64,000 bases of DNA from Amphiscolops sp. MND2022 (Eukaryota). Of the stretch, positions 1-61,447 are shown piece after piece. Each line of letters starts with the position of its first letter. The stretch's first letter is position 1. Position numbers and translations under genes: made by a program. The DNA lies in the NCBI GenBank assembly GCA_964187785.1, contig OZ076409.1:7876001-7940000 (forward strand), in the 5' to 3' direction. Under the pieces are notes generated by a model. It worked only from the letters and a program-made list of their open reading frames with translations, was not told the origin of the DNA and did no database searches.

Positions 1-1998
1 AATCCGAGCCACCACTTTGGAGATACCTTGATGTCCCATGGCGTCATGCGCGCGCAATAAAATCTCATGCTGGTACAGTTGAGGCATGACGATCATGCAC
101 GGACGTTCGTGCAGGGGACGTTGGTTGGGAGGGTATCGTACGCAAAGCACACCATTCTTGTTAATGAACAGGAGAGTTTTCTTCTGACGGTAGTAGTTGC
201 GTGCGAACTCACGCACGTTCTCGGGAAACACGTCATGATCGATGGGTTCGTTTAACACCAACTTTTTGAGTGCTAGCACATGAACATCACGATTTTGGGC
301 TAGAATCAAATCTTTGATACCATGCACGGTGTGAGCATGTTCGTGAAGTTCAGTGTTGATGTCTTTAAGAGCCATAATTGAGTCGCGTACACCCGAGGGA
401 GTACCTTGCAGCGCAACAGGATTCGCCTCAGCCATGGCATAGACGGTACGTGAGGGTACATTTACGGCATGCGTCGGTAATAGATAATCTTCGCGTGCTT
501 CATCAGTCACGTCAATCCAGTCCTCAGGGTAGTCTGGATAGGCATCCTCGTGCGGTTGCAGAGCAAGGGAAGGCGGAGGCGGCAAGGGGGCTGCGAATGC
601 TTTTGCTGGTCTGTCCCTCCTGCTCGCTCGTTTGGTGCGGCGAAGCACGCGTAGCAATTGGTTGGGAGCCTTAGGCTCCAAGTTCTGCAGGTGCGCAGGT
701 AGTTCGGGATGATTCGGGATGACTCGACCCTGAAGGTCGAACCATGGGGCAACAGGTAGTTTATCAATTTCGTCAGCTGAAAGGAAATTCCAGCGTTCGC
801 CCGCTGCTGGCTGCTGTGCAAGCTGTTTCTCTCGGCATCGATACTCGTTGGTTCGTTTGCTCAAGCCATCGGCGTTTCGATGTTGAGTTCTTGGGCGGTG
901 TTCCACGCGAAAGTGATACTTTTCCAGGGTCATAATCCATCGGCCGATTAGCGCTTGATCCGTGGAGTAGGTTTTCAACCAGGACAAGGCTTGGTTATCC
1001 ACCCGCAGGGTGAATTTCCGGGGACATAAATAGCTGTGGTTCTTCACTATGAAATAGTAGGCGGCGAACATTTCAAGTTTGGGAGCTCCGTATTTAGCTT
1101 GCGTGGTAGTGAGCTTCTTGCTACCGTAAACTATCGGTCTCAGGCGTCGTTCACCCGGAGGACCTTGCCACTGGTGCAGGATACCCGAAATGGCGACAGC
1201 ACTAGCGTCTGTGTCCAACACAAACTCTCCTTCGGAATCAGGCTGCGCGAGCGCAGTTGCCTCGATCAGGGCTTTTTTGATCTCATTGAATGCGGTTTGT
1301 TGCTCAGGACCCCAGGCGAAGGTGGCATTCAATCCAGTGACGGCGTGCAGGGGTGCAACCAGCTTAGCGTGCCAAGGGATGAATTCGCGATAATAGTTGG
1401 CGAATCCAAGGAAACTCTGCATCTCTGTCTTGTTACGGGGAATTTCCCAATCGCGCAACTTGACAACGGCTTTCGGGTCGGGCTTCACTCCTTCTGCGGA
1501 AACCACTCGTCCCAAATACTTGATCTCCGATTTCATGAAATCGCATTTGGCCACGCGCATTTTGAAACCGGCTTCACGGAGGCATTCAAAGACTTCACGT
1601 AGGCGTACCATATGGTCTTCCACAGTCTCTGTGGCGATCACGATATCATCAATGTAGGCCATGACCATGCTGCCCTCACGATTGACAATATTCCTTAGCG
1701 CACGCGCTATTGACCGCTGAAACGTGGCAGATGCATTGCACATACCAAATGGCATTCGCCGCCACTCAAAAAGTCCTAGTTCACAAGCAAAAGCGGTTTT
1801 GTGGCGATCCGCCTTCCGCACAGGAATTTGCCAAAAGGCCCAAGCAAGGTCTATGCTGGTATAAATCTTCGCTTTGCCTAGCCGTGCCAGGCTTTCATCA
1901 ATACGGGGCAAGGGATAGGCATCCTTAATGGTTACCTCATTTAACGGGCGGAAGTCGCAGCAAAAGCGCAACTCCCCGTTTTTCTTTTTCACCATTAC
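1..1998 (-). CDS. pol: Pol fragment: reverse transcriptase, RNase H, N-terminus of integrase (runs off window edge, so absent from ORF track)
   Basis: Manual translation: VMVKKKNGELRFCCDFRPLN...DAYPLP...MPFGMCNA...AYIDDIVI (YIDD 1656-1645)...LDTDASAVAISGIL...VDNQAL...HRNADGLSK...LLRAHDAMGHQGISKVVARI. Confidence 0.93.
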
Positions 1999-2535
1999 AC
2001 TGTAATGGTGAAAAAGAAAAACGGGGAGTTGCGCTAGCGCCTGCGAGTCTCTCCGTAACCTCCTCGATGAATTTGATGAGCTATTCATGAAACACAAAGC
2101 GGACATCGGTCGGTGCACTATCGCTAAGCACACCGTGGAGGTGGAACCAGGGGCTGTACCGCATCGCGAAGGTGCTCGCCGGATGTCCCCTGAGAAGGCC
2201 GAACGTGCCAATCAGGAGGTGCGGAACCTCTTAGCTCTGGGAATGATACAGCCCTCGCTGTCCCCTTGGGCGAGCGGCATTGGCAATGCCGCTCGCCCAA
2301 GGGGACAGCGAGGGCTGTATCATTCCCAGAGCTAAGAGGTTCCGCACCTCCTGATTGGCACGTTCGGCCTTCTCAGGGGACATCCGGCGAGCACCTTCGC
2401 GATGCGGTACAGCCCCTGGTTCCACCTCCACGGTGTGCTTAGCGATAGTGCACCGACCGATGTCCGCTTTGTGTTTCATGAATAGCTCATCAAATTCATC
2501 GAGGAGGTTACGGAGAGACTCGCAGGCGCTAGCGC
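1966..2535. repeat. Two adjacent perfect fold-back palindromes (34-bp arms centred on 2000; 252-bp arms centred on 2283) interrupting pol
   Basis: 1966-1999 is the reverse complement of 2001-2034, and 2031-2282 of 2284-2535. The ORF track shows the same peptide (MKHKADIGRCT...) on both strands. Confidence 0.95.
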
Positions 2536-4326
2536 CCCATAAATCCTTGACCGCCTTGAGCTGAGATTCTGGCCCAGGAATCGGAGCCATTAGCTCTGGG
2601 TCTGTTCGCTTGCGAATCTCGCGCTCCGATAGTCCTGCCTCGCTAGGGTCAGTAGAGGACAAAAACTCAAATTCTGAAGAAGAGGTTAACTCAGAAGCAG
2701 TGGATAGATTCACTTCACTATAAATTTTATGAACAAAATTTGCACGACTGTCGTCGGCGTCAGTTTTTGTGCGGGTTGTAGTGGGAGAGTCCAAACATTG
2801 AGGTACTGCTTGGTATACTACCGTTATGGGTACTACGGTGCCCAGTTGTACACCACACCGCATGCGTTGAGGGTTGCTGGTGAGATTTATCAGGCTCACA
2901 AAGAGTGTTCCTGTCTCACTGACAGTGGCCACGCTGTCCTCTAAAAAGACGACATTGTGCAACGTAGTGTCAGACAAAGAGGCATTGAGCGCTACGCTTT
3001 GAAAAATCAGCGGCTCTAGTGCATTGGTGACGAGCTTGGCTCTAGCCACCGCTCGTTCGAAAGGTTGCAGGACCAAGTCACTGTCCAAAACGACTGGAGT
3101 AGCTATTGAAGTGTCACCTACCTGTGCGTGAGCATGATGCCACACAGGCTTCACTGGTGCTCGCACCACAATCTTCATAGATGTTAGATCCACTAACACC
3201 TGGTACGAGCGAAGGAAGTTCCGGCCAAGTAGGAAGTCTTCCACACCCATTGCGTCATCTACCACCACAAAGTTCGTTTCAAGTTCGTATCCTCCCAGCT
3301 GGAAATGGATATGTTCTGCGAGGCCGTAGGTCTTTATTGTCTTCCCGTTGGCTGCGTACAGGTCAACTTGGTAGGGCTTAAGGACCGTTCCGGTTCGAGC
3401 GGCCACTCTATTAAAGGCGGAAAACGTCAGTATGGAGACGCCCGAGCCAGTGTCCACCAGTCCTCGCAGCGGGATAGGTGCTGCATGAGGCACCACGAAA
3501 GAGACCACGAGCGACGCACGCTCATCTATACGCGCTTCACCGGTGGGCTCCTGATGATTGATGTTATAGCATTTGAGCTCCTGGGGACCCAGACAAATGC
3601 CAGGGGGAAATACATCCACCACCACACAGGCTTCGAATTTCATATCCACTCCATCCATTGAAGCACAGACTGGCACTGGGGAATATGTTGTCAGAGTCGC
3701 AGACTCTCCCGGAGCGTACCATTCTTTCGGTCGAGGCAACTCGTTTCGTTTGTAGAGGATAGACAATTCGACCCATAGCTTCGCCAGAGTTAGCGTCGGC
3801 CTACGTGTTTGCTCAGCCGCCAGCAACAGGTGAATTGAAATCAGCGTACGTCCTTGCGGATCGAACGTTGTGGGTTCCAAGCAGGTCTGAACCTGCTTAG
3901 CACCACAAGTGAACGTCATCGGAGTGTGGAACGCAGGCGGTTCCGCTGGATGTAGCATCAACACGCGGTCATCCTCCAAAGGTACGGTGTGCGCTGCGAT
4001 GCCAGCTGATTCGACCTCAGCCCATCGATTGTAGGCTAACTCGTCACTGGGCTTTGGCGCATGGGAGTGCTCGCCACATTGCACTTCCGCCTGATCGAAA
4101 AGTCCACAGCTCGTGCATTGATAGATCCCCGGATGACCTTCAAGGATACCATCGGTCGTGTCTTCCGTGGTCACCTTTACGCCCTCTGGTTCGGAGGCAG
4201 TCATTGGTTTTCGGGCCTGGTCGCGATTGGGGCACTCGCGAGCAAAATGTCCGTTTTGCCCACAGTGAAAACAAGCACCTACCGGCGCTCGGGCGGGCGC
4301 TGGGACAGCGGGAGCTGGGACATTCT
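2284..4326 (-). CDS. pol: Gag-Pol middle: CCHC zinc knuckle, degenerate protease-like domain, aspartic protease, dUTPase-like domain, start of RT
   Basis: Frame of ORF 2231-4204 extends upstream to QNVPAP...GACFHCGQNGHFARECP. Contains LVDTGSGVSIL...FLLGRNFL (retropepsin), VLQPFERAV...VSLINLTSNPQRMRCGVQLG, and SPWASGI at the start of RT. Confidence 0.88.
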
Positions 4327-6230
4327 GGGGGGGGGGGCGCCGGAGGTGGCAGGACGCCCTGCGGCATAACCATCTTGTTCGGCGGCAGTGGTGCGAAAGG
4401 ATGAGGTCTAGACCTCATGGCTAATCGGGGATCATAGGGTTGTTGAGGTTGGGTGGGTCTGGGACGATTTCGTTGCAGCTGACGTGTGGTAAATCGCAAG
4501 GACTCCACGGTAGGGGGTTCGGTAAGAAAAGTCTCCGAGGCGTACACTATGGCAAGTTCACGCCTCAACACTGGATCTCGCACACCTTCCATGAAGCGTT
4601 GCAAGATTTCATAGCGTTTGGTAATGATACTTTCTTGCGGGAATCCTTGGCTCCTGAGACCCTCTAAAGCGTCTAAGTACTGCATCCAGTCCTCTTTTTC
4701 TTGTTGGACGCGGCTTTGGAAGGTCTGCCGCACCTGCATACGATTTCCTCCCGCGCCAAATCGGCTAGATAGCAACTCGAACACCTTCTCGGGGGTGTCA
4801 CGTTCAGACTCAGCCTTGTTGATGATGTAGTTGCGAGCCTCACCCTCTAGGTGACCGATAATGCTCCAGGCCCGATCTTCGGCCGAGATTTTGGTTTGGA
4901 CTCTTTTCAAGTATCGCTGCATCACTAAAATCCAGCCATCAATAGACCCGTCCTTAGAGCCTCGATACACGCTGGGTTTGGTTTGAGCCAGGTCACGTCC
5001 CGCAAGCAACGGTGCTAGTTCTTTGGACATTGCTTTGGAAATGGCGGCAGTGAACCTCAATTGCTCGGGAGAAATGACTTCAGCCTCTCCTTCCTTGGGT
5101 GCCATTTCATCAGTACCGTCGTCACTGCCATGCGTAGCTTGCACTGAGAGGTTCGCCACGTCTTCTTTCTTGCGAGTGCTACTCGCACAAGGAGCGCCCG
5201 AGGGCATTCCATCCTCGGCTGTCCAGTCGGCGGTCAGATATAGGGAGTCCGTTCCAGAAGCCATGGTAGGGGCCGTCGCATACGCAGCTCCATCAGTCTG
5301 GGACCCCAGTGTGGCCTTAGTACAGGATAAATCAACTTCGGTGGAAGTATCTAGATAGATAGGTGACATTGGGTCCACACCTTGGTCCCGGGTGGCACTT
5401 CGAACTACGGAGGAGGTTATTTGACTCATCGACGAGGAGTCGTGGGGCCCTCTTACCTGCACCCGTGCAGGTTTACGCTCCACATCAGCCATGATGAGTA
5501 CGGGATCCTTGGCTCGGGTTTCAGGCGTCGTCGACTTGGAGGTGCTAGGCTTCAATGCACTCGCCAACTCGGGTTTTGTTGCCCGACCCGGGTGCGATGA
5601 TTCCGGAATCTTAATTGAATCCGCGACCGGCACACCTTCAGTGGCACCAGATTGTCGTGGGAGGGATCTTTCGCGCCTCATGATGTTGATAGCATTGAGC
5701 ACAGTGTGCATTTGGTTACTCAAATCATTGATCTGGGTTTCCACACGGAGTTCACGGGCCATCAAAAGGTCATTCATCTCACCCATTCTGTGGCCTAGTG
5801 CATCTACGCGAGCACTCTGCGTGTTCTGCGCGGTTCGCAGTTGATCACTGACCTGCAATCCTTCTCGCATCGTTGACTGCAATGTTCTCATATTTTCAGC
5901 GATGGCACGATGTTGGTCATTGCACCCAGCACGAGTGCTATCCAGTTCAGCTAAGGCACGTTGGGTCTCGGCTTGGGCTTCCAATATTGCGGCTTTATAC
6001 ACCGAAGATCGTTGGGACGATGCCACTGAACCTGCCACGCTCCTCGTACGAGGCACCTCAACTTGACGTTCACCTACATTTATCATGGGTGGTCGCACTT
6101 TCTTGTGTTTGCCATAGGCACAAACTCTAGTGTTACCTCGAGTGACTCCAGACCCTTGCGGTCTCGCACAACTCGCGTTCTCCGTGTAGGTAAGATCCTC
6201 GTCCACCGTGATCTGTAGGCGGGAGCTCAT
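4140..6230 (-). CDS. gag: Gag (coiled-coil plus retrotransposon capsid); the C-terminal knuckle lies in another frame after the G11 run at 4327-4337
   Basis: 696-aa ORF with PSVYRGSKDGSIDGWILVMQRYL...HLEGEARNYI...FQSRVQQEKEDW...FMEGVRDP, typical gypsy capsid motifs. Confidence 0.88.
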   Translation of the reverse strand: MSSRLQITVDEDLTYTENASCARPQGSGVTRGNTRVCAYGKHKKVRPPMINVGERQVEVPRTRSVAGSVASSQRSSVYKAAILEAQAETQRALAELDSTRAGCNDQHRAIAENMRTLQSTMREGLQVSDQLRTAQNTQSARVDALGHRMGEMNDLLMARELRVETQINDLSNQMHTVLNAINIMRRERSLPRQSGATEGVPVADSIKIPESSHPGRATKPELASALKPSTSKSTTPETRAKDPVLIMADVERKPARVQVRGPHDSSSMSQITSSVVRSATRDQGVDPMSPIYLDTSTEVDLSCTKATLGSQTDGAAYATAPTMASGTDSLYLTADWTAEDGMPSGAPCASSTRKKEDVANLSVQATHGSDDGTDEMAPKEGEAEVISPEQLRFTAAISKAMSKELAPLLAGRDLAQTKPSVYRGSKDGSIDGWILVMQRYLKRVQTKISAEDRAWSIIGHLEGEARNYIINKAESERDTPEKVFELLSSRFGAGGNRMQVRQTFQSRVQQEKEDWMQYLDALEGLRSQGFPQESIITKRYEILQRFMEGVRDPVLRRELAIVYASETFLTEPPTVESLRFTTRQLQRNRPRPTQPQQPYDPRLAMRSRPHPFAPLPPNKMVMPQGVLPPPAPPPPECPSSRCPSARPSAGRCLFSLWAKRTFCSRVPQSRPGPKTNDCLRTRGRKGDHGRHDRWYP

Positions 6231-6238
6231 CTTTTCTC

Positions 6239-6583
6239 CTAGGGGTGCGCGAGAGCACCCTTCCTCAGCTGCAAGTTCGTTGGTCGCGTTCGAGTTGGGC
6301 CACTCCTCTTCTGCTTCTTTGGCTCTTTCACGACAGGTTTCTTCGACCCATTGCTCGGTTCGACGAGAGCTCCCAGATGCAACGGAACCCTCAGAGGGGG
6401 GACCATGGCGGCCAATTCCTCCTTGCGTTGTTGCTCGATAGTGACTTCGTCAGACATTTCGTCTGAAAAATGCGAACCGTCCATTGTGGATCCTATGGTC
6501 ACCCATGACTGCGAACTCATGTCAAGCTTTTCCAGGCCTGGTAGGACCATTACACACGATGCCAATGACAGAGCAGGTGTCAA
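6239..6583 (-). CDS. Small ORF immediately upstream of gag, unknown function
   Basis: 114-aa ORF in the GC-rich part of the element, ending 8 nt before the gag ATG in a different frame. No recognisable domain. Confidence 0.25.
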   Translation of the reverse strand: MTPALSLASCVMVLPGLEKLDMSSQSWVTIGSTMDGSHFSDEMSDEVTIEQQRKEELAAMVPPLRVPLHLGALVEPSNGSKKPVVKEPKKQKRSGPTRTRPTNLQLRKGALAHP

Positions 6584-7777
6584 CGATTCGGACGTAGCCT
6601 TTAAAGAAGTCTCGAGGAACGCGGGATTGGTCGAGTCGCGGTTAGCTCTAGGCTCGTCTCGGTGTGGACTTAAGAAATTTGACTGTTTCGCAACGTCCCA
6701 AATTTCTCGAAATACGTTTTAAGGCTCGTAGGCTGTTCAAACTTGCACAGCGTTTTCCCACAAGCACACTGGGCCAGAAAATCAACCTGGTTTAGGGCAA
6801 AAAGTCTCCAGTCACTCACAGGAAGATTTTCAAAGAATTTTTGGATTTTCCAAAAATCGCACAACAACACTCAAGAGGCTCGTGTGTGCGCTGGAAGCGC
6901 TGTATCAAGCCCAAATTTGACCAGCGGATCTTGGGTACGCGTAGGTTTACGAAAATGAACACAGTTTTGAGCTGCGCCCCTTCTACACAGTTTCACCTAG
7001 GTACAGACGTGCGGTACCACTATGTACCGAAATACACTGTTTTTCACGTCTTTTTCAAGATTGCGGTCCACTGGAAAAAGCTAGCGAGCTCAAATTCTCT
7101 GCAGCAACGTAGGAACTAGCACAGGTTACGATGGTGGGCTGCAATATAGCCCCACCCGTCGGCTAAGGTGCCCGGGTTACTCGGAAAATATAAGAAAAAA
7201 CTGCCTTTTTGGACACCTTTTTGGGTGCCACGTTTTTCCTATTTTCTCAACAAGTATCACACGGATCAGCACCAAACTTGGTAGTCTATGCCTATGGGCA
7301 CCTATAATGCCACTAATTTGGTCGAATTGAAGCGCGAGCGCTTATTTGGGGTTTCGACCTACTACGTACGTTGTACACAAAAAAACACTGTTTTTGACGA
7401 CTTTTTTCACAAATTGACGAAGAGGATCACCTCAGAAAGTGATACGGCGGGCAAAATGGGACCAACGTGTCGCCCCACTATCCGTAGCACTGGGATAAAC
7501 CCTCAATTGGTTGTGCCCGTTAGGTATAAGGCACCGACAGTCCTGCAGTTTTGGATCTTTTCGGCTTTTTCAGCCTCTCTGGAATCAAAACGTCAGAGAG
7601 CTTTTCTCGACTTTGGGGAGCGATACGCCCACCAAATTTTCGGCACTAACGTTAAATTTTGTGGTGGTTACGAAAATGCAACCACTTTTTGGCTAGGGTT
7701 CAGGAATCGATGACCCGACCCTAGCTCAGAGACAGTCCGGTTTTGTGGAAAATTGATCAAATTCAGTGCGTTTTTAC

Positions 7778-8043
7778 ACTTTTCTCAGCACTGAAAAGGA
7801 ATTTTTGCACGCGGTTTTCACTACAATGCGTGGTTTTTACTATAGAAACAGAAAACGAGAGCACGAAAGCTCCTGACTAACAAAAAGACAGAGTGCCCAG
7901 GGGGTTTTTATTGTGTGCTAGGACACTCCTGAAACTAACTAAAATTTTAGGTTTTTCAACTTTTCTCAACACTGAAAAGGAATTTTTGCACGCGGTTTTC
8001 ACCACAATGCGCTATTTTTATTGCAAAAACAGAAAATAAGAGC
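7778..8043. repeat. Degenerate direct repeat (~85-bp conserved block, 181-bp period) in gypsy 5' leader
   Basis: ACTTTTCTCARCACTGAAAAGGAATTTTTGCACGCGGTTTTCACYACAATGCG at 7778 and 7959. Confidence 0.85.
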
Positions 8044-23028: not shown

Positions 23029-23228
23029 NNNNNNNNNNNNNNNNNNNNNNNNNNNNNNNNNNNNNNNNNNNNNNNNNNNNNNNNNNNNNNNNNNNNNNNN
23101 NNNNNNNNNNNNNNNNNNNNNNNNNNNNNNNNNNNNNNNNNNNNNNNNNNNNNNNNNNNNNNNNNNNNNNNNNNNNNNNNNNNNNNNNNNNNNNNNNNNN
23201 NNNNNNNNNNNNNNNNNNNNNNNNNNNN
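23029..23228. other. Assembly gap (200 N)
   Basis: Run of N. Confidence 1.
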
Positions 23229-39630: not shown

Positions 39631-39861
39631 TTAAACTGGTTATGTTCTTTGGACACAAAGAAGACGAGCTGTGAGACTCATTCTCTGTCCATATTGATTG
39701 TCATTTCAATTTTGTAAACTAAATACGTTAACTAATGACTTTCATTTGTTAAACTGGTTTATGTTCTTTGGACATAAAGAAGACGAGTTGTGAGACTCAT
39801 TCTCTGTCCATATTAATTGTCCTTTCAATTTTCTAAACTAAATACGTTAACTAATGACTTT
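39631..39861. repeat. Tandem duplication of ~118 bp
   Basis: TTAAACTGGTT...GAAGACGAG...CTAATGACTTT occurs twice. Confidence 0.9.
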
Positions 39862-40366
39862 AATTTTCACTAACTTCTTCGTTTTCAATTTTGAATTTTG
39901 ATATTGTATTATCTCCTCGTTGCCACTTAAAGATGATTTCAGTTCAAGTAATCTTTGATTGAAAAGAAAATTCAAGAATATTTTACGCACCGGAGTAGTT
40001 CATTAGATCAATTACTTTTGGTTCAAAAACAACATTGATCAAGAGGCGTCGATTTCTTTTTTTTTTTCGACTATCAAAAACAGAAAGTTATACAATTGAA
40101 TTTGTTTTTGACAATTCTAACTTGCGCACCGATGTATAGAACCAAATCGTTTGACACTGCAATGCACTAATACAACAATCTCATTCAATCGCCTCATATG
40201 GTTTTCTGGTACTTCTCAGGTGAACCATAAAAACGGAACGCATGAAATTTTGAGTCTTCGAAGTATTATTATTTGTAATTAAGACTCTCAATTTTTCAAG
40301 TGTTCAAAGTTATCGTGAAACTTTTGTTGTCAAATTTTTGTAACGTTGGCAACTCAAAATAATTTT

Positions 40367-51879: not shown

Positions 51880-53822
51880 CTGTAAACACCAATAATGATT
51901 CATCCAAAATATTATACAGTCCGTGTAATACAATCGACTGCTGTCCTAATCCAGAACCTTTCTGAGACAATTCAGGTTTCGAGTATGCGGGCACATACGC
52001 TTCAATTCCCCCAAAAAAAACTGGTATCCAATTTCAAATGTCTCATAACTGAATTAGTATGGAAAATGCTTAGAATTTATTGGTTTTTCAAGTCAATTTA
52101 AGCAATGTCTGGTTGTCGAAAACTTGTTTGTAGATGCATTTTTTTCTCTGAAAGAACGAATTGCAGCCAGATTTTTGACCTTTTTCCATTCGACTTTTGG
52201 TATTAATGGCTCAATGTTGTACACGCAAACTATCACATTTCTGTTAGCTATAGAATATTTCTCTGATAAAAGCGACCCAGTTATAATTGTGGGATTAGAG
52301 CAGGAAATGATTTTTCTCAAGTCTATGAAAAACTTATATTATCTCTGTAGGATTTTTGACTTTTCGCTCATGATTTGGTGTTTATTAAATTTTAGTTCAT
52401 CAGCAAGGTAGATTTTACGGGGTGATATCGTATAAAAGTAAAGATTACACTAAGTACTTCAAGTACCTCGCACTATTATTTAATGTCAATAATATCGTCT
52501 CTAGTTCCGCGGACAACCAAAATAACCATTCTTAGCTGCTATGAAGCGACCGCGCAACGTATTAATGCAGTGAGACGGCCGCCACCACCTAAACCTATGT
52601 AAGAAAATTCTATTCGGAACGAAACTTTAACATTGAATTTCTCAATACCTATTGCGAATATAAGAAAAATTAAACCACCAAAATGCTCCTTTTCGACCTG
52701 ACTACGTGTTGAGTAAACATTTAAGAACTTTTCAGAAACGAATTTCCACAGAAAAAGCATTAGAAGTCATAAAATACTGTGAATAGAAATTTAGTCAAAT
52801 TACTATGTTAATACATGTGTTTGAGGGTAAGCGAGAGTGAAAACTCCGCCGTGTGCGTGAACAGCATAGAATGCAACTCACCCAAGCGTGTCAGAAAGCG
52901 AAAGGAATGAAAATTAGAACGCGCTGTGAGTGGCTGTACGCGTAGCTAATAAGAAAACGGCCGCCGCACACTTTGAATTAATCCCCCCTCTTAATAGAAA
53001 TAAAAAATCAAAACCCGATTTCTCGAAGATGAAAAAAGATAGCAACAAACGGTTTTCAGCATTCACAAGCCCATCTAAAGGAGAGCTTAAGTTGAGAATA
53101 TGAGCGTTGTGCGACCCCGGGAACCTATCGGGGGGAAGCTTTGAAAATAAGTGCATTTAAAATTTTGACGATTTTCCAAAATTGAGTTTCGTTTAAAAAT
53201 TTCGTGTGATCGCTACAGTTGTCAGAAAATGTTCGGATATGGCCTAAATTAAAGATAAATGGATGCCTTAACTTGTGTTAATTGGAAAATAAATAATATT
53301 CAGTAGTTTTTGAGAACTGAGCCAGCAAACGTTAAAAACAGCCCTAAAATGGCCTAAAAAACCGTTTTTCGCATGTTATCGCTTAGTACTCAACGTGTAA
53401 GCGCACAATAGCCGCCCCCTTCACAGCGTACTTGAGAATTGAAGTGGAGGAGTGAATAGAATAATAAATAGAGTGCTGCGGTGCGCTAGCGAAGAACCCC
53501 AAAGAATTTAAAGTTGTGATTTCTCTCTGCCGATAGGGATGTCGACCTACCAAAATGCTAACCCCCCCCCGCCGCACGTTTTGGGCGATATCGAACTGAA
53601 ACTTTCAGGGTAGACGCACAAGACCCAGGCGCACAGCGTTTAGCAGAAGCGTTTTTCCGAAAAAGGACCTGGTTTTGATATATTGGCCTCCAAAGTTGAA
53701 AGTCCAGACATGAAAATCGGGAAAATGACTATTTTCAGAAAAAGTACTATCAAATTTTGTTGAGAAAAGATAGAGACCTCATCTAAAGTGCAAAATACTC
53801 CTAATGACTTGGGCTAACGTTG

Positions 53823-53829
53823 TATATAA
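53823..53829 (+). promoter_or_regulatory. Candidate LTR TATA box
   Basis: TATATAA followed by GCCCCC; position inference only. Confidence 0.35.
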
Positions 53830-54582
53830 GCCCCCAGCCTGTATCTTTCAAATTGACTGAGTACTAGCACTCCAAAGTTGAGATTTGCGTGAAAACCGAT
53901 GGGTGATTTTTGACTACCAAATTTAAAGGCGTTTTTCACTATGAAGGAGTTGAAATAGAAAGAAAACTATGGAGTAAATTTTTGTAGCCCACGATTTGTA
54001 CTTTCAAATGGTGTACTTGGTTTTTGCCCCCCGTGATCGGAACACCTTGTTTTTGCCCTTAGAATTTGTAACACGAAAATCGACTTTTTTAGATATGAAT
54101 TAAAATCGCCTTTTAGGTCATTGTAAATTGTAGAAAATTGTTTCCTTCAGCCATTTTTAGCTGAAGAGAGTTGTCAGGAACCGCGTGAGAAAAAGAGACC
54201 TGGCAAAAAGTGCAAATGTCAATCAGTAAGCCGAAGTTCAAGTCGTGCTTACAAAAGTGGGAAACACTGAGTCAGTAGCACCACCCCTTAAATTCTATTG
54301 AAAACGAAGTAAAACCATCAGTCATGATTGACAAGGAGGTGGAACTAGGACCGACTCGTGATGAGAAATGTACTTTTGACGAATCTTCAGTCCCGAAGTA
54401 AGGAAAACTGATTTGCTCAACACTTAGTCAGGCCCCCAAAAAGGAAAGATGACAAATTACGGATACGTAAATGACTAAAGTGCCGAAGAAGTAACTTTGG
54501 CCGAAGTGTGTGTCAATTCAGAGACACACACCGTGAGTTACAACCTAGAGAACAGTTTGACTTATTGTTGTGTCGGCGATTT

Positions 54583-54972
54583 TTATCTGCAGCTACAAGT
54601 GAGGTGGAACTCCAAGACCTTGTGTTGAGATAACTTCGGAACAGGATTTTGCCGTAAGTGAGGTGGAACTCCAAGACCTTCTTCAAAATCCTTAGCTTCA
54701 ATCGTGAGTGAGGTGGAACGCCAAGACCTTCGTTGAAGCGTTCCAATCGTGCGTGAGGTGAGACTCCAAGACCGTCGTTGGAACAAACTGTTGCAATCGC
54801 GAGTGAGGTGACTCCAAGACCTCCGTTGTGGCACCCGTTCTCGAACCCTGTTCAATCGTGCGTGAGGTGAGAATCCAAGACCGTCGTTGAACATTCTTGT
54901 ACTCTTAATCGTGCGTGAGGTGTTGGACTCCAAGACCGTCGTTAGGATACAATTGCTTTCACTCCAAGACCG
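54583..54972 (+). ncRNA. Array of seven structured RNA hairpins plus a partial eighth motif, with a conserved apex, in the 5' LTR
   Basis: Core GTGAGGT(G/R)nACTCCAAGACC at 54599, 54658, 54708, 54753, 54803, 54862 and 54915, each closed by a different complementary stem. Confidence 0.75.
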
Positions 54973-55396
54973 ATAGAGATTTGCGGCGAGTTGCTTTATT
55001 CGATATATTACTGATATCACTCCCTATCCTCACGGATAACCAAAATCAACACCTTGCTAGAACCCTGCTTATTAATTGTCTGTGTTATATGCCTTCTAGT
55101 ATTAACCGTAATATTCACCGTATTTATCGATGTTACCTCATAGTACATTCTATTATTCGTGGTTGTGAAATTGTGTTTGTGTCTATTAATTGTCTTATTT
55201 TATTATTTTGTATTAATTGATGTTCAAACTGCTCTTTTCATTCGCGAAAAGACCCCCTCGTATTTTTAACAGCCTAAGAGTAGCGAGACAAACCCCTGAA
55301 AGAGGGAAAAATAGCAAAGTTGTAAAGATCGTGATTTCCTTGTCACACTTACCCCCACCGCCTTCGATTAAGTTGATTCGTCTCTTCTTCGGAGTT

Positions 55397-55402
55397 AATA
55401 AA
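55397..55402 (+). terminator. Candidate polyadenylation signal in LTR
   Basis: AATAAA ~120 nt before the LTR end (also at 60543 in the 3' LTR). Confidence 0.4.
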
Positions 55403-55523
55403 AATTTATGTAGATACTCAGCCAGTCCTTGTCTCGTGCATGGTACCTACGGGTTTAATTGAGTTGTAGTGGAGCTATTCTCAACAAATAGTTAAAGCTA
55501 CTGGAAAACTAAAAATCTTACAT

Positions 55524-55542
55524 TGGCGCTCCTGGGTGGGCT
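55524..55542 (+). promoter_or_regulatory. Primer-binding site (tRNA-Asn-like)
   Basis: TGGCGCTCCTGGGTGGGCT, 1 nt after the LTR; its complement AGCCCACCCAGGAGCG-CCA resembles the animal tRNA-Asn 3' end. Confidence 0.8.
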
Positions 55543-55634
55543 TTCTTTGCGTCTTTGTTATTTCCTCTTTCTTTGCTTACTTCTTTCCCATAGCTTCCCT
55601 TCACCCCTTGTGAGTTGCTGAACTCTTCTTGACG

Positions 55635-56897
55635 ATGTCTGGAGACGACGACAACGATCAGCAGATTTCCCCCGCCACCCAAGAAGATCCCAACGGCACC
55701 CACACTCCCGTCACAGGTGGTAGTAAACCACTCCTCAGTAAGTCCACTAAATTTTCCTTCGTAGGATTGGCCGACACGGAAAAGGAGTGTAAACGAGATG
55801 CTTATCGGCGATTGAAAGAAATGGAAAAAGAAGTTAAAAGATTCAAAATTGAAGCAGACCTAGATTCTGACGACTCCATGGTTCTTGAAAATGAATCCAA
55901 AAGAAGACAAAAACCTTTATATGAAAAATCACCAATAAAACCTGAAAAATTCCCTAGTAAGGACTATAACCGCTGGGAAAATTGGATAAAACACTTCAAG
56001 GCAGTTGCTAAAGCCAATGGATGGAATGATGGTCAAAAAATTGCAGCAATGCCTACTTGTTTAACATCATGGGCCATTGAAGAATTCGAAACTATCCCCC
56101 GAAGGTATATCGAAAAAGAACCAGGTTGTTATTCGCCGCGGTTTGACGAACTTCTTGAGGTTCTTAAACCCAAAATGCAACAGTATCGCAGTCAGCGAGC
56201 CACGCGGGCCGAATTTAAAGCCGTTAAACAATGGGAAAATGAGAACCTAAGAGAATTCTCGAGAAGAGTACGTCACCTCGCCGATATAGCCTTTCCTGAG
56301 AAACCCCTCCGGGAAAGAGAACGCGACATGAGAGATCAATTTATCGAAGGACTTTTTGATTCGCGGGTGCAAATCAATTTGTATGAAGACGAGCGTGACC
56401 GTGACTTCGGTGAAACTTTGCAACGTGCACAGGAACTCGAAATAATCCACAAGACTCAAGAATCGAGAAAAGACCGGAAATTCGATAAACTCCGCTACTC
56501 ACAAAATGATCTCGAGTATTCCGATACAGTAAGAGCTGGCTATTCAAACAATAACCAAATTGAAGAAAAATTTGCAGCTATAGAAACATCGTTAATCAAT
56601 GTGGCAAGTCGTTTTGATCGTTTCGAAAATTCAATTTGTCAACACATCTCCAAGCAAACTGAACAAATCTCGAAACTAGCCAACTCAACAACCAGCCAAA
56701 TTGAAACCCTCGTGCAAAGTATAAAAGACATGTCATCTGCGATGGTAGGAGCGGCGGGAAGTTCGCAACAGTCGGCTGGTGGGCAGTCTCAAAATGTAAA
56801 AATAACCCAACCCCCGCCTGAAGAAGCAGAATGCTTTCATTGCAAATCATATGGCCACTACGCTCGACAGTGCCCGAACAGAACCAAGTCAAAATAA
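55635..56897 (+). CDS. gag: Gag protein (420 aa): capsid, coiled coil, C-terminal CCHC knuckle
   Basis: KPEKFPSKDYNRWENWIKHFKAVAKANGW...QWENENLREFSRRV...DQFIEGL and CFHCKSYGHYARQCP; uninterrupted ORF. Confidence 0.93.
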   Translation: MSGDDDNDQQISPATQEDPNGTHTPVTGGSKPLLSKSTKFSFVGLADTEKECKRDAYRRLKEMEKEVKRFKIEADLDSDDSMVLENESKRRQKPLYEKSPIKPEKFPSKDYNRWENWIKHFKAVAKANGWNDGQKIAAMPTCLTSWAIEEFETIPRRYIEKEPGCYSPRFDELLEVLKPKMQQYRSQRATRAEFKAVKQWENENLREFSRRVRHLADIAFPEKPLRERERDMRDQFIEGLFDSRVQINLYEDERDRDFGETLQRAQELEIIHKTQESRKDRKFDKLRYSQNDLEYSDTVRAGYSNNNQIEEKFAAIETSLINVASRFDRFENSICQHISKQTEQISKLANSTTSQIETLVQSIKDMSSAMVGAAGSSQQSAGGQSQNVKITQPPPEEAECFHCKSYGHYARQCPNRTKSK

Positions 56898-57476
56898 CAA
56901 CAATTCGTGAATCAGGACAGCAGCGGAGCCGTAGATGATCTTCAATAGTGGCCAAAAGACGACATGATGACCATAAGCTGAAACACGGGAACCCGATGTG
57001 TGAAAAAAGCCTTCCACCGCTAGTACAGTACCCCATACGTGAGATGAAATTTTTCACATTAATAACTTGTATCCAAATCAAACAAATTTACCCCCCCTGT
57101 GTTTTTTTTGCCCCAATGAAAAGCTCGAAAACTATATTTTCTCCTCGCTTGAAAAAAAAATGAAAATAGGAGTAAAGTAATATAGAGTAACTCAAGTGCT
57201 CAAAACATCCTCCAGTCAATTAAAAAATTTTTTTTTCTCGATGGAATTGGAGAGCTTAAGGTGTTATAGTAGGCTTATAATTAATTAAATGGATATTAAT
57301 AGAAAGTGAAGTGATTTAGTATTGTATTTCAAGCACTTGTTTACAAAATAAAAGAGATTAAGTTGATGAAACAAGGCTACATTACAACCTGACTGGACTA
57401 CAAATTAACGAATCAGAACGCCCCTACAATAGGAATAAAATTTAAATAAACCAACTACTCAGGAGAGTAGTAGTCC

Positions 57477-57489
57477 AAGTGGGGGGGAA
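57477..57489 (+). promoter_or_regulatory. Polypurine tract
   Basis: AAGTGGGGGGGAA directly before the 3' LTR TG. Confidence 0.85.
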
Positions 57490-60400
57490 TGTAGGATTTT
57501 TGACTTTTCGCTCATGATTTGGTGTTTATTAAATTTTAGTTCATCAGCAAGGTAGATTTTACGGGGTGATATCGTATAAAAGTAAAGATTACACTAAGTA
57601 CTTCAAGTACCTCGCACTATTATTTAATGTCAATAATATCGTCTCTAGTTCCGCGGACAACCAAAATAACCATTCTTAGCTGCTATGAAGCGACCGCGCA
57701 ACGTATTAATGCAGTGAGACGGCCGCCACCACCTAAACCTATGTAAGAAAATTCTATTCGGAACGAAACTTTAACATTGAATTTCTCAATACCTATTGCG
57801 AATATAAGAAAAATTAAACCACCAAAATGCTCCTTTTCGACCTGACTACGTGTTGAGTAAACATTTAAGAACTTTTCAGAAACGAATTTCCACAGAAAAA
57901 GCATTAGAAGTCATAAAATACTGTGAATAGAAATTTAGTCAAATTACTATGTTAATACATGTGTTTGAGGGTAAGCGAGAGTGAAAACTCCGCCGTGTGC
58001 GTGAACAGCATAGAATGCAACTCACCCAAGCGTGTCAGAAAGCGAAAGGAATGAAAATTAGAACGCGCTGTGAGTGGCTGTACGCGTAGCTAATAAGAAA
58101 ACGGCCGCCGCACACTTTGAATTAATCCCCCCTCTTAATAGAAATAAAAAATCAAAACCCGATTTCTCGAAGATGAAAAAAGATAGCAACAAACGGTTTT
58201 CAGCATTCACAAGCCCATCTAAAGGAGAGCTTAAGTTGAGAATATGAGCGTTGTGCGACCCCGGGAACCTATCGGGGGGAAGCTTTGAAAATAAGTGCAT
58301 TTAAAATTTTGACGATTTTCCAAAATTGAGTTTCGTTTAAAAATTTCGTGTGATCGCTACAGTTGTCAGAAAATGTTCGGATATGGCCTAAATTAAAGAT
58401 AAATGGATGCCTTAACTTGTGTTAATTGGAAAATAAATAATATTCAGTAGTTTTTGAGAACTGAGCCAGCAAACGTTAAAAACAGCCCTAAAATGGCCTA
58501 AAAAACCGTTTTTCGCATGTTATCGCTTAGTACTCAACGTGTAAGCGCACAATAGCCGCCCCCTTCACAGCGTACTTGAGAATTGAAGTGGAGGAGTGAA
58601 TAGAATAATAAATAGAGTGCTGCGGTGCGCTAGCGAAGAACCCCAAAGAATTTAAAGTTGTGATTTCTCTCTGCCGATAGGGATGTCGACCTACCAAAAT
58701 GCTAACCCCCCCCCCGCCGCACGTTTTGGGCGATATCGAACTGAAACTTTCAGGGTAGACGCACAAGACCCAGGCGCACAGCGTTTAGCAGAAGCGTTTT
58801 TCCGAAAAAGGACCTGGTTTTGATATATTGGCCTCCAAAGTTGAAAGTCCAGACATGAAAATCGGGAAAATGACTATTTTCAGAAAAAGTACTATCAAAT
58901 TTTGTTGAGAAAAGATAGAGACCTCATCTAAAGTGCAAAATACTCCTAATGACTTGGGCTAACGTTGTATATAAGCCCCCAGCCTGTATCTTTCAAATTG
59001 ACTGAGTACTAGCACTCCAAAGTTGAGATTTGCGTGAAAACCGATGGGTGATTTTTGACTACCAAACTTTAAAGGCGTTTTTCACTATGAAGGAGTTGAA
59101 ATAGAAAGAAAACCATGGAGTAAATTTTTGTAGCCCACGATTTGTACTTTCAAATGGTGTACTTGGTTTTTGCCCCCCGTGATCGAGACACCTTGTTTTT
59201 GCCCTTAGAATTTGTAACACGAAAATCGACTTTTTTAGATATGAATTAAAATCGCCTTTTAGGTCATTGTAAATTGTAGAAAATTGTTTCCTTCAGCCAT
59301 TTTTAGCTGAAGAGAGTTGTCAGGAACCGCGTGAGAAAAAGAGACCTGGCAAAAAGTGCAAATGTCAATCAGTAAGCCGAAGTTCAAGTCGTGCTTACAA
59401 AAGTGGGAAACACTGAGTCAGTAGCACCACCCCTTAAATTCTATTGAAAACGAAGTAAAACCATCAGTCATGATTGACAAGGAGGTGGAACTAGGACCGA
59501 CTCGTGATGAGAAATGTACTTTTGACGAATCTTCAGTCCCGAAGTAAGGAAAACTGATTTGCTCAACACTTAGTCAGGCCCCCAAAAAGGAAAGATGACA
59601 AATTACGGATACGTAAATGACTAAAGTGCCGAAGAAGTAACTTTGGCCGAAGTGTGTGTCAATTCAGAGACACACACCGTGAGTTACAACCTAGAGAACA
59701 GTTTGACTTATTGTTGTGTCGGCGATTTTTATCTGCAGCTACAAGTGAGGTGGAACTCCAAGACCTTGTGTTGAGATAACTTCGGAACAGGATTTTGCCG
59801 TAAGTGAGGTGGAACTCCAAGACCTTCTTCAAAATCCTTAGCTTCAATCGTGAGTGAGGTGGAACGCCAAGACCTTCGTTGAAGCGTTCCAATCGTGCGT
59901 GAGGTGAGACTCCAAGACCGTCGTTGGAACAAACTGTTGCAATCGCGAGTGAGGTGACTCCAAGACCTCCGTTGTGGCACCCGTTCTCGAACCCTGTTCA
60001 ATCGTGCGTGAGGTGAGAATCCAAGACCGTCGTTGAACATTCTTGTACTCTTAATCGTGCGTGAGGTGTTGGACTCCAAGACCGTCGTTAGGATACAATT
60101 GCTTTCACTCCAAGACCGATAGAGATTTGCGGCGAGTTGCTTTATTCGATATATTACTGATATCACTCCCTATCCTCACGGATAACCAAAATCAACACCT
60201 TGCTAGAACCCTGCTTATTAATTGTCTGTGTTATATGCCTTCTAGTATTAACCGTAATATTCACCGTATTTATCGATGTTACCTCATAGTACATTCTATT
60301 ATTCGTGGTTGTGAAATTGTGTTTGTGTCTATTAATTGTCTTATTTTATTATTTTGTATTAATTGATGTTCAAACTGCTCTTTTCATTCGCGAAAAGACC

Positions 60401-60668
60401 CCCTCGTATTTTTAACAGCCTAAGAGTAGCGAGACAAACCCCTGAAAGAGGGAAAAATAGCAAAGTTGTAAAGATCGTGATTTCCTTGTCACACTTACCC
60501 CCACCGCCTTCGATTAAGTTGATTCGTCTCTTCTTCGGAGTTAATAAAAATTTATGTAGATACTCAGCCAGTCCTTGTCTCGTGCATGGTACCTACGGGT
60601 TTAATTGAGTTGTAGTGGAGCTATTCTCAACAAATAGTTAAAGCTACTGGAAAACTAAAAATCTTACA
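57490..60668 (+). repeat. 3' LTR (3179 bp)
   Basis: Copy of 52346-55522; differences seen are two 1-nt indels and about three substituted bases. Confidence 0.97.
59729..60118 (+). ncRNA. Second copy of hairpin array in 3' LTR
   Basis: Same sequence as 54583-54972, offset +5146. Confidence 0.75.
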
Positions 60669-61447
60669 ATCTCTCTGCACACCAATTCTGGTGCGATTTA
60701 TGAAAAATGGGGTAATTTCTTTTTTTTTCGATTCTAATTCTTTCACGCGCACTCAAACAAGGAAGCTTAATCTCTTCAAAATCACTTCAACTTTTGAACC
60801 AATTGTTGCTGAAATTAACGTTTCTTCTAATGTTTGTCATTCAAAATTGACTCATTTTGTTATCCCCATTTGAATCGGTCGATCACTCGACTGTTCCAAG
60901 AATAAAATAGGCCAAATAAAAATTCTATCCGCGGTCAACGAGTTGATGAAAATGGAATAAAATTAAAACAATCGTTGACAGACAATGTTCGCCGCATGGG
61001 CGTCATGTAACATTTGCTGGAAACTGTATTCAAATGTTCGAATGATAATTTGAAAGGACATATTGTGTTGTATGGAAAATAAATTGGTTAACAGCCGTTG
61101 CGTTTCTCCTACTACTGCTGCTTGTAAAATTTAAAGTTATAGAATTATAGAGTGGAGAACCAGAACCGACCGGCGTTGTTGGTATCATTATTATCATCAT
61201 TATTGGTGCAACCAAAGCCAAGCCGTCGTTACAGGCTGCAGAAAAACTGCAGTGGCTCTGTAAAATTTACACTGCGACTACGGAAGTTGAAGTTGAAGAC
61301 AGAGAACAAGCGATCTTCTCACAGCTTAGAACGCCTCAGTGCAGAATTCGCACCATCGTTCGTTGGAAGTGTTAGCTGGTAGTTGTTAGTTGTTACATCA
61401 TACCAACGCTCTTACCGCTTTTCTCACTTCTCTTCCAAAAAATTCTC

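Follow-up and report, generated by a model that had tools for sequence, protein, structure and literature searches.

An array of seven tandem units and a partial eighth was found at 54583-54972 in a long terminal repeat (LTR) of a Ty3/gypsy retrotransposon, within a 64,000-nucleotide (nt) stretch of the genome of Amphiscolops sp. MND2022 (assembly GCA_964187785.1, contig OZ076409.1, forward-strand positions 7,876,001 to 7,940,000); this whole stretch is called the window, and positions are counted from its first letter. Each unit carries two fixed sequence boxes between arms that are specific to that unit and complementary to each other. Because the stems have diverged with their pairing kept, and the boxes have been kept in sequence, the array reads as a row of docking sites for one protein, and we regard it as somewhat probable that it constitutes a multimerised protein-docking RNA module, acting in cis in the LTR of a young family. 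The anatomy of the array, the covariation of its arms, the conservation of its boxes and the element around it are the observations that carry this reading. An earlier note on this DNA had set aside the resemblance to clustered regularly interspaced short palindromic repeats (CRISPR) in favour of a battery of hairpins with diversified, covarying stems and a conserved apex, and the permutation and covariation tests described below bear out that description for hairpin-type units.

The core of the unit is bipartite, reading GTGAGGTG-N(3-7)-CCAAGACC, and lies between the unit-specific complementary arms. Fourteen matches to this pattern were present in the window, where shuffled sequences lead one to expect none: seven at 54599-54937 and seven, at 59745-60083, in a second copy of the array (59729-60118), identical to the first, on the plus strand of the 3′ LTR. 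The units of the first copy, all on the plus strand, stand where the earlier note had placed them, with core-to-core spacings of 59, 50, 45, 50, 59 and 53 nt and cores that vary from 19 to 23 nt among units. Unit 1 (54583-54633, core 54599-54619) has the arms TTATCT/AGATAA, CAGC/GUUG and ACAAG/CUUGU, and folds at −15.7 kcal/mol, with 1 of 300 shuffles equally stable. Unit 2 (54643-54692, core 54658-54678) has the arms AGGATTTTG/CAAAATCCT and in older copies reads CAAGATCCT in its arm, a U·G wobble. The arms GCTTCAA/TTGAAGC of unit 3 (54695-54739, core 54708-54728), GTTCCAA/TTGGAAC of unit 4 (54740-54784, core 54753-54773) and TGTTCAA/TTGAACA of unit 6 (54849-54893, core 54862-54882) are each followed by a CG/CG step. 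Unit 5 (54789-54833, core 54803-54821), with the arms TGTTGCAA/TTGTGGCA, contains three G·U pairs in the plus sense, and its minus-strand fold is weak (−6.3 kcal/mol); unit 7 (54897-54952, core 54915-54937) has the interrupted arms TTGTA-C-TCTTAA/TTAGGA-T-ACAA. The 3′ box alone, at no more than one mismatch, gave 17 matches in the window against 2.7 expected, one of which is the partial eighth unit (54955-54972, plus strand), where the 3′ box CTCCAAGACC at 54962-54971 is all that is present; the alignment described below indicated that this remnant is kept in nearly all diverged copies. Tandem Repeats Finder detected the middle of the array only (54653-54828, period 50, 3.7 copies, 76% matches). 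The degenerate unit that had been noticed upstream also exists: it stands isolated about 250 nt before the array at 54321-54367 (plus strand), with a core-like sequence at 54336-54352 between the arms TCATGA/TCGTGA, and it is common to the relatives, in which it forms a unit class of its own (class 11, 10 copies) with a flank duplex of −8.9 kcal/mol on the plus strand and a 3′ box that still reads CAAGAC in older copies.

The complementarity of the arms was assayed by duplex energies, for which only the 18 nt flanking each core to the left and to the right were used. All the arm pairs proposed in the earlier note were complementary, and each of the seven units, when folded alone, closed its outer stem. 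The duplex energy of cognate arms averaged −9.7 kcal/mol, compared with −4.7 kcal/mol for non-cognate arms, and the true assignment of left to right arms was the single best of all 5040 permutations; in the matrix of arm duplexes, the cognate partner ranked first by both row and column for 6 of the 7 units. The arm complementarity is therefore far beyond chance.

The array region has 621 first-look candidates in the 1.07-Gb genome, and all 40 of those scored were 99-100% identical to it. A genome search with the exact core pattern brought up arrays unlike those of the young family; at two mismatches it gave 1262 forward and 1360 reverse matches against 1110 and 1098 for a reversed-pattern control, so exact matches only were used. 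One core variant absent from the young family occurred at 53 genomic sites, against 0 for the reversed control. From these sites 51 loci were fetched, 14 with 94-99.5% and 37 with 69-85% identity to the window over the region, and the 36 loci that span the whole array were aligned. In the older lineages (69-85% identical) units 1-5 are common with small changes, and are followed by different units, the new arms of which still pair (CTAC-GC/GC-TA-GTAG, TCTTAAC/GTTAAGA, ATCCAA-TT-GAA/TTC-G-TTGGAT). The covariation across family members that had been proposed as a check of the hairpins is thus present, in sister lineages whose new stems continue to pair. Of the 342 unit copies collected from 52 sources, 40 stood alone and the others formed 12 classes of 10-41 copies and a single class of 2; when each of the 12 classes was represented by its medoid, which is one real copy, none of 100000 permutations reached the cognate sum of arm-duplex energies. 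One of the diverged loci (L040, G000:C3:29863000-29868000) carries the first array unit twice on one strand, 3088 nt apart, which points to an old copy with its LTRs in tandem or nested. Outside this genome, an exact search of the bipartite core in metagenome and viral collections returned 118 and 108 stretches, respectively; each of the 160 loci listed held one isolated match and none of them an array, and these matches were taken as chance.

The 8 unit classes that share one register were aligned (A3) and scored against a 12-pair structure that we specified ourselves. In A3, 96.9% of the 96 cells pair, compared with 85.9 ± 1.8% in shuffles (0 of 500 reached the observed value) and 26-54% when partners were slid, and five pairs and 12 cells have changed on both sides. 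The exchange of CAA/TTG for TAA/TTA that the earlier note had read in unit 7 as compensatory proved to be a real double change, the pair 10-48 being C-G in 6 classes and U-A in 2. Supportively, RNAalifold, to which no structure was supplied, recovered the outer helix and the CG/CG step, and it added three inner pairs: an invariant closing G-C, one that occurs as G-U, G-C and A-U, and one with covariation, being C-G in 5 units and A-U in 3. Inside the core it further predicted two GG/CC pairs, both invariant. When A3 was turned into a covariance model (R1), this gave 128 matches over the window and 22 loci, without exception on the sense strand of the array, with unit 4 as the top match (78.3 bits) and with no match in the window outside the two LTR arrays. 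In the resulting alignment of 112 distinct rows, which was fitted to R1 and thus leans towards its structure, 90.1% of 1401 cells pair, compared with 77.4 ± 0.7% in shuffles and 31-49% with slid partners; 199 cells are changed on both sides against 60 expected, and covariation is present at all 9 outer pairs.

A separate feature of A3 concerns the loop (window region 54620-54700), in which the invariant UGA of the 5′ box (positions 20-22) faces the invariant AGA of the 3′ box (positions 36-40) between the closing G-C and the GG/CC pairs. This arrangement may make the loop a candidate of the kink-turn or loop-E type, with 5′-GA/3′-AG tandem sheared pairs beside a short bulge.

Conservation is given as identity, with every one of the 37 diverged loci scored in its best alignment. 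The 5′ box (0.912) and the 3′ box (0.886) exceeded the outer stems (0.782), the linkers (0.813), the core centre (0.746) and the surrounding LTR (0.792), with the reservation that the two box figures are somewhat inflated, the loci having been found through one exact core. The unit accordingly consists of two fixed boxes around a free centre, and of stems that change at the background pace yet stay paired.

The array lies in the LTRs of a complete retrotransposon on the plus strand (52346-60668), as the earlier note had supposed. The 5′ LTR (52346-55522, 3177 nt, with TG...CA ends) and the 3′ LTR (57490-60668, 3179 nt), both on the plus strand and delimited by blastn between the two halves of the element, each carry an array and are 99.84% identical over 3179 columns; their 5 differences, two one-base indels and three substitutions, all fall outside the array. 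The element is flanked by a 5-bp target-site duplication, ATCTC (52341-52345 and 60669-60673). A 17-nt primer-binding site (PBS) at 55524-55540 on the plus strand is complementary to the 3′ end, with CCA, of tRNA-Asn(GUU), exactly so for the tRNA-Asn(GUU) gene that ARAGORN found in the same genome (L319:163-236), and a plus-strand polypurine tract (PPT), GGGGGGGAA at 57481-57489, directly adjoins the 3′ LTR. The internal region of 1967 nt holds a gag frame only, without pol (55614-56897, plus strand, 427 codons, first ATG at 55635); its product contains one CCHC zinc knuckle (zf-CCHC, E=2e-4), and its atlas neighbours are Ty3-type Gag clusters of no clear taxon. From the PBS with its tRNA-Asn match, the PPT and gag together it follows that the plus strand is the sense of the genomic RNA.

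Among the 40 scored copies, the spacing of array regions revealed 10 LTR pairs at 5.1-5.4 kb, 4 at 11.0 kb, 1 at 13.1 kb and 10 singles. The one 11-kb copy that was read (L031) encodes gag and a 1610-codon pol in the order protease, reverse transcriptase, ribonuclease H (RNase H) and integrase, an order that assigns the autonomous form to Ty3/gypsy; to judge by their spacing, the remaining 11-kb pairs are probably autonomous too. The family thus shows the TG..CA ends, target-site duplication, PBS, PPT and CCHC-bearing gag of a Ty3/gypsy LTR retrotransposon, with the pol order taken from L031; it is very young and abundant, and autonomous and gag-only forms, the latter resembling terminal-repeat retrotransposons with a GAG domain (TR-GAG), share one LTR. 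Some further observations on the family may be recorded. The gag-only spacing (10 pairs) outnumbers the autonomous spacing (4 pairs at 11.0 kb) among the 40 near-identical hits, and the non-autonomous form seems to be more successful than the autonomous one. The autonomous copy L031 has, in a region of about 1.6 kb between pol and the 3′ LTR, a 184-codon antisense frame (7138-7692 of that locus, minus strand), for which Pfam gave no match. The 17-nt PBS complement, at no more than one mismatch, occurs at 781 genomic sites against 0 for the reversed control, with all 100 listed sites exact; these sites outnumber the 621 array candidates, and other families may use the same tRNA-Asn primer.

The array spans 550-940 nt upstream of the LTR end and of the PBS (55524), with its own end 550 nt before that of the LTR. 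The best-conserved part of the LTR (55280-55522, plus strand; 0.86-0.94 identity to diverged copies) contains AATAAA at 55397-55402, and we suggest that this terminal stretch of about 240 nt comprises the repeated region and the 5′ unique region (R/U5) plus the attachment (att) end. On this assignment the array would fall within the 3′ unique region (U3), and hence in the 3′ untranslated region (UTR) of the genomic RNA. A candidate TATA box, TATATAAG at 53823-53830 on the plus strand, was read from its motif 750 nt upstream of the array and is only loosely kept across 13 diverged copies; if TATATAAG were the one used, the array would sit in a long R.

In the mechanism that we propose, each 45-56-nt unit would fold as a hairpin of about 12 bp, made of an outer helix of 6-9 variable pairs, the CG/CG step and a three-pair inner helix closing on G-C, and would present the invariant boxes UGAGGUG and CCAAGAC in an internal or apical loop around the variable centre. 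Such hairpins would set 7-9 docking sites for one protein in a row on the sense genomic RNA, and the diversified stems would favour local folding of each unit. The module would then act as RNA rather than as DNA, in the plus sense, through a docked protein and in a specific role. For that role, an export or expression element comparable to a constitutive transport element (CTE), which would recruit a host factor to the exposed AAGAC loop by multivalency, appears to be the most likely candidate, followed by docking of the zinc knuckle of Gag for packaging or for nucleation of assembly. The CTE-like role is favoured because AAGAC is predicted to be exposed in an internal loop and because published CTE-type hairpins need 4-8 tandem copies. 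AAGAC is present in 7 of the 7 window units, with C as the sixth base (AAGACC, not AAGACA); 2 of the 8 aligned classes carry GAGAC, and after the G of the motif one medoid deviates at A and another at C. RNAalifold placed AAGAC on the 3′ side of the loop between the G-C and the GG/CC pairs, which are invariant and thus unsupported by covariation, and GUGAG, the core of a 5′ splice site, would be exposed opposite AAGAC across the predicted loop. Both likenesses are post-hoc five-letter matches and are offered as leads.

The comparison cases are as follows. In the CTEs of Mason-Pfizer monkey virus (MPMV) and of the NXF1 intron, NXF1/TAP binds an AAGACA motif in an internal loop, one Tap-p15 to each unit (PMC4330393), and a 5′ splice-site-like sequence is reported to be kept near the loop in CTEs (PMC4338338). 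The gamma-CTE, a weak gammaretroviral element, is described as nearly ineffective in one to three tandem copies, clearly effective in four and more so in eight (PMC4174252), and export elements can reside in LTR or U3 sequence (PMC11379458).

A number of results weigh against the docking platform or against its finer details, and the inflation of the box figures mentioned above belongs with them. The plus-strand array folded at −122.6 kcal/mol against a shuffle mean of −126.9 kcal/mol (z +0.65), and 76 of 100 dinucleotide shuffles were at least as stable; for the minus strand, z was +1.82 and 96 of 100 shuffles were at least as stable, and only 2 of the 7 single units reached p<0.05 against shuffles. 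The hairpins are of ordinary stability, a point that the earlier note had not foreseen, and it is covariation, not energy, that carries the case. The CTE resemblance is a post-hoc match at 5 of 6 letters, AAGACC against AAGACA, the units are separate hairpins rather than a two-fold symmetric CTE stem, and the position of the array, in U3 or in R, was assigned from motifs and conservation alone.

The earlier note had taken the G-U pairs to point to the plus strand, and a weak trend is what remains of this claim. The active copy has 5 G·U pairs, in 3 of the 7 units, and no A·C inside helices; the plus-strand arm duplexes are uniform, from −8.3 to −10.8 kcal/mol, and three of the minus-strand ones are weak, from −4.9 to −6.6 kcal/mol; the class medoids contain 8 internal G-U pairs on the plus strand against 3 on the minus strand. 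The mean plus-minus energy difference of −0.87 nevertheless lies within the non-cognate baseline (0.05, standard deviation 2.4). A strand test was made on the 121 positions at which most members of a class form a Watson-Crick pair, and among the shared variants, that is, those found in two or more elements, 19 were G·U on the plus and 14 G·U on the minus strand (p=0.49); an earlier and cruder wobble count of 18 vs 14 was discarded, the aligner having over-extended helices into non-helical sequence. The private variants were symmetric, with 31 plus-sense and 31 minus-sense wobbles along with 99 transversions, as neutral decay predicts. A plus-sense RNA is accordingly favoured, and not demonstrated, as the folded molecule. 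A search for sequencing runs returned no RNA run that holds the array; two other runs, with small shares of 0.10 and 0.06, yielded 10 short contigs of low depth, none of which covers it, a result that bears neither way on expression.

Three other explanations were weighed against these data. The nearest, itself a sub-case of the docking platform, takes the array as a docking array for Gag or nucleocapsid, in which UGAGGUG on hairpins would be a high-affinity site for the CCHC knuckle, assembly or packaging would be nucleated there, and both forms of the element would be packaged. Exposed G-rich loops are the usual targets of retroviral nucleocapsid proteins. A Gag with a CCHC knuckle is encoded by autonomous and gag-only forms alike, and the gag-only form keeps the array-bearing LTR and is common (10 of the scored LTR pairs, 5.1-5.4 kb). 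A purine loop is reported to be critical for Gag binding in mouse mammary tumour virus (MMTV; PMC8096270), and for Ty3 RNA the Gag binding sites are described as not precisely defined, with packaging dependent on the UTRs or POL (PMC4974528). The array, however, stands outside the classical place of a packaging signal, the leader downstream of the PBS, lying 550-940 nt upstream and probably in U3, and a pure knuckle site of the GNG type leaves unexplained why CCAAGAC is as conserved as the G-rich box; we consider this specific role unlikely.

The paired arms could also have arisen as a mutational by-product, if a replicative polymerase or reverse transcriptase switched templates within existing inverted repeats, copied arm onto arm and so mimicked compensatory evolution, in which case the repeat would be functionless or would have a function in its boxes only. 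Template switching in DNA replication is reported to be able to create and maintain RNA hairpins (PMC8794818), and both the ordinary folding energies and the strand asymmetry, which RNA-level selection should produce and which is not significant (p=0.49), would suit it. It would require repeated events in each of the 12 unit classes and in several lineages, however, and it yields Watson-Crick copies, yet 3 of the 7 units in the active copy hold the 5 G·U pairs. Intermediates exist as well, one unit-2 pair being G-C in 18, G-U in 12, A-C in 3 and A-U in 2 copies; decayed copies lose pairing symmetrically (31 vs 31), which argues against an ongoing genomic homogenisation, and the boxes are conserved above background, so that something is under selection. 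We judge a purely mutational origin to be quite improbable, and we are equally doubtful of an enhancer acting at the DNA level, in which the boxes would be repeated transcription-factor sites upstream of the LTR promoter and the arm pairing would be incidental or would serve a cruciform. Tandem U3 repeats acting as enhancers are a classical LTR feature, the array probably lies upstream of the conserved terminal ~240 nt with AATAAA, that is, in U3, and the strand test gives no proof of RNA. A factor site would account for the boxes but not for arms that covary unit by unit at a distance of 30 nt; of palindromic half-sites one would expect a fixed sequence instead of covariation, and the variation of the core centre from 3 to 7 nt is awkward for one rigid composite DNA site. 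The docking of a protein to RNA hairpins remains the reading that we prefer.

Several further identities were tried and rejected. A CRISPR array was dismissed on the grounds that the apparent spacers are mutually complementary half-arms, that the cores are 19-23 nt long and that the array lies in a eukaryotic Ty3/gypsy LTR of a 1.07-Gb genome. The absence of a known Rfam motif, as the earlier note had it, was confirmed with 0 matches at E≤1 for 4227 families on both strands of positions 52000-61000. A precursor microRNA or small-RNA cluster, one of the roles floated at that time, is unlikely, with helices of at most about 12-14 pairs, interrupted by bulges, where about 22 bp or more are needed. 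A coding tandem repeat was rejected, the 146-codon frame on the minus strand reading the core in three different frames; the frame has no Pfam match, its length without a stop varies between 68 and 145 codons in 37 copies, and it is a composition effect. The minus strand of the array (54583-55023, with its equivalents in 37 copies) is indeed nearly stop-free in all frames, with 68-145 codons against 32-54 on the plus strand, and TTA, CTA and TCA are very rare on the plus strand of the array; this scarcity of stops is put down to the composition of the units. When the cores were paired with the primer tRNA-Asn, the leader, gag, the post-gag region or the remainder of the LTR, 33 to 188 of 200 shuffled cores did at least as well, and no exact reverse complement of either box is present in the element. 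A kappaB-like reading of GGAACTCC was dropped, that part of the core being the least conserved (0.75) and variable among units.

Elsewhere in the window, a second, unrelated Ty3/gypsy element occupies 1-6449 on the minus strand; its reverse transcriptase and RNase H fall in 1-2211, its CCHC knuckle and protease in 2234-4414. Upstream of it on its own strand lies a pair of 93-nt direct repeats (7770-7862 and 7951-8043) with 86% identity and a gap of 181 nt, possibly one more case of a repeat within an LTR or leader. A pair of 108-nt direct repeats at 39640-39866, with 94% identity and 119 nt between its members, is unrelated to the array, and a run of 200 N at 23029-23228 marks an assembly gap.

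The recognition of Ty3/gypsy RNA for export, trafficking and packaging is described as poorly defined even for yeast Ty3 (PMC4974528). The array family offers a clean handle on this problem: the unit is short and modular, it has two invariant boxes in 7-9 copies per LTR, its natural stem variants already serve as compensatory-mutation controls, and hundreds of near-identical genomic copies exist, both autonomous and gag-only. Should a host export factor or Gag dock on the boxes, the array would offer a natural case of function through multimerised weak sites and a ready-made RNA tag; if the arms are kept paired by template switching, it would be a striking test case for a mutational route to RNA-like hairpins.

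Structured cis-acting RNAs of retroelements are already known, and what appears to be new is an LTR in which 7-9 covarying hairpins, all with a fixed bipartite loop, form a regular array; a literature search at the level of titles and abstract openings returned no comparable hairpin array in an LTR, which is no proof that none exists. With the CTEs (MPMV, NXF1 intron-10 and gamma-CTE), as these are described in the sources cited above, the array would share a cis-acting structure in unspliced retroelement RNA, provided that it does act as RNA, and a predicted helix-flanked loop with AAGAC(A), a nearby 5′ splice-site-like GURAG and multiple copies would be further points in common, MPMV having two loops and the gamma-CTE 4-8 tandem copies. 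It differs from them in carrying AAGACC instead of AAGACA, in keeping the splice-site-like box separate from the AAGAC box, and in consisting of 7-9 independent hairpins of 45-56 nt where the published CTEs have one two-fold symmetric stem of about 150 nt; moreover, it belongs to a Ty3/gypsy retrotransposon. The psi and Ty packaging signals are like the array in presenting hairpins with exposed purine-rich sequence at several sites that would cooperate, together with a CCHC Gag from the same element, whereas the array sits within the LTR, a long way upstream of the PBS, rather than in the leader or gag, is a regular tandem, and has a second, non-purine box that is equally conserved.

Export elements borne by LTRs provide another parallel: the Rec response element (RcRE) of HML-2 in U3, the MER11/HML-8 CTE, the MusD transport element (MTE) and the RNA transport element (RTE) of intracisternal A-particles (IAP) are reported to place several stem-loops in LTR-derived sequence or in the 3′ UTR (PMC11379458). 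As described there, however, their folds are complex, with many stems and no repeated unit, they have no sequence similarity to the array, and the authors found no NXF1-type loops in the MER11 element (PMC11379458). The window copy, with its two LTRs, PBS, PPT and gag frame only, is also like the TR-GAG elements, which in the accounts consulted are described in plants; the present family also includes an autonomous partner that carries the same LTR. By analogy only, the array resembles the engineered MS2 and PP7 arrays, which likewise set hairpins in tandem, keep the protein-binding loop constant and vary the stems or linkers by design; those arrays are artificial, bind a phage coat protein and have no homology to the present one. 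Taking this analogy furthest, we tentatively put forward the idea, possible but rather doubtful in its full form, that the array is a natural counterpart of engineered 4x-8x CTE/MS2 arrays, in which 7-9 weak hairpins, each with an NXF1-type AAGAC beside a splice-site mimic (GUGAG) and with stems actively diversified against misfolding and recombination, would hijack the host export and U1-type machinery for an intronless RNA by multivalency alone, and which would have been passed on to the gag-only parasite.

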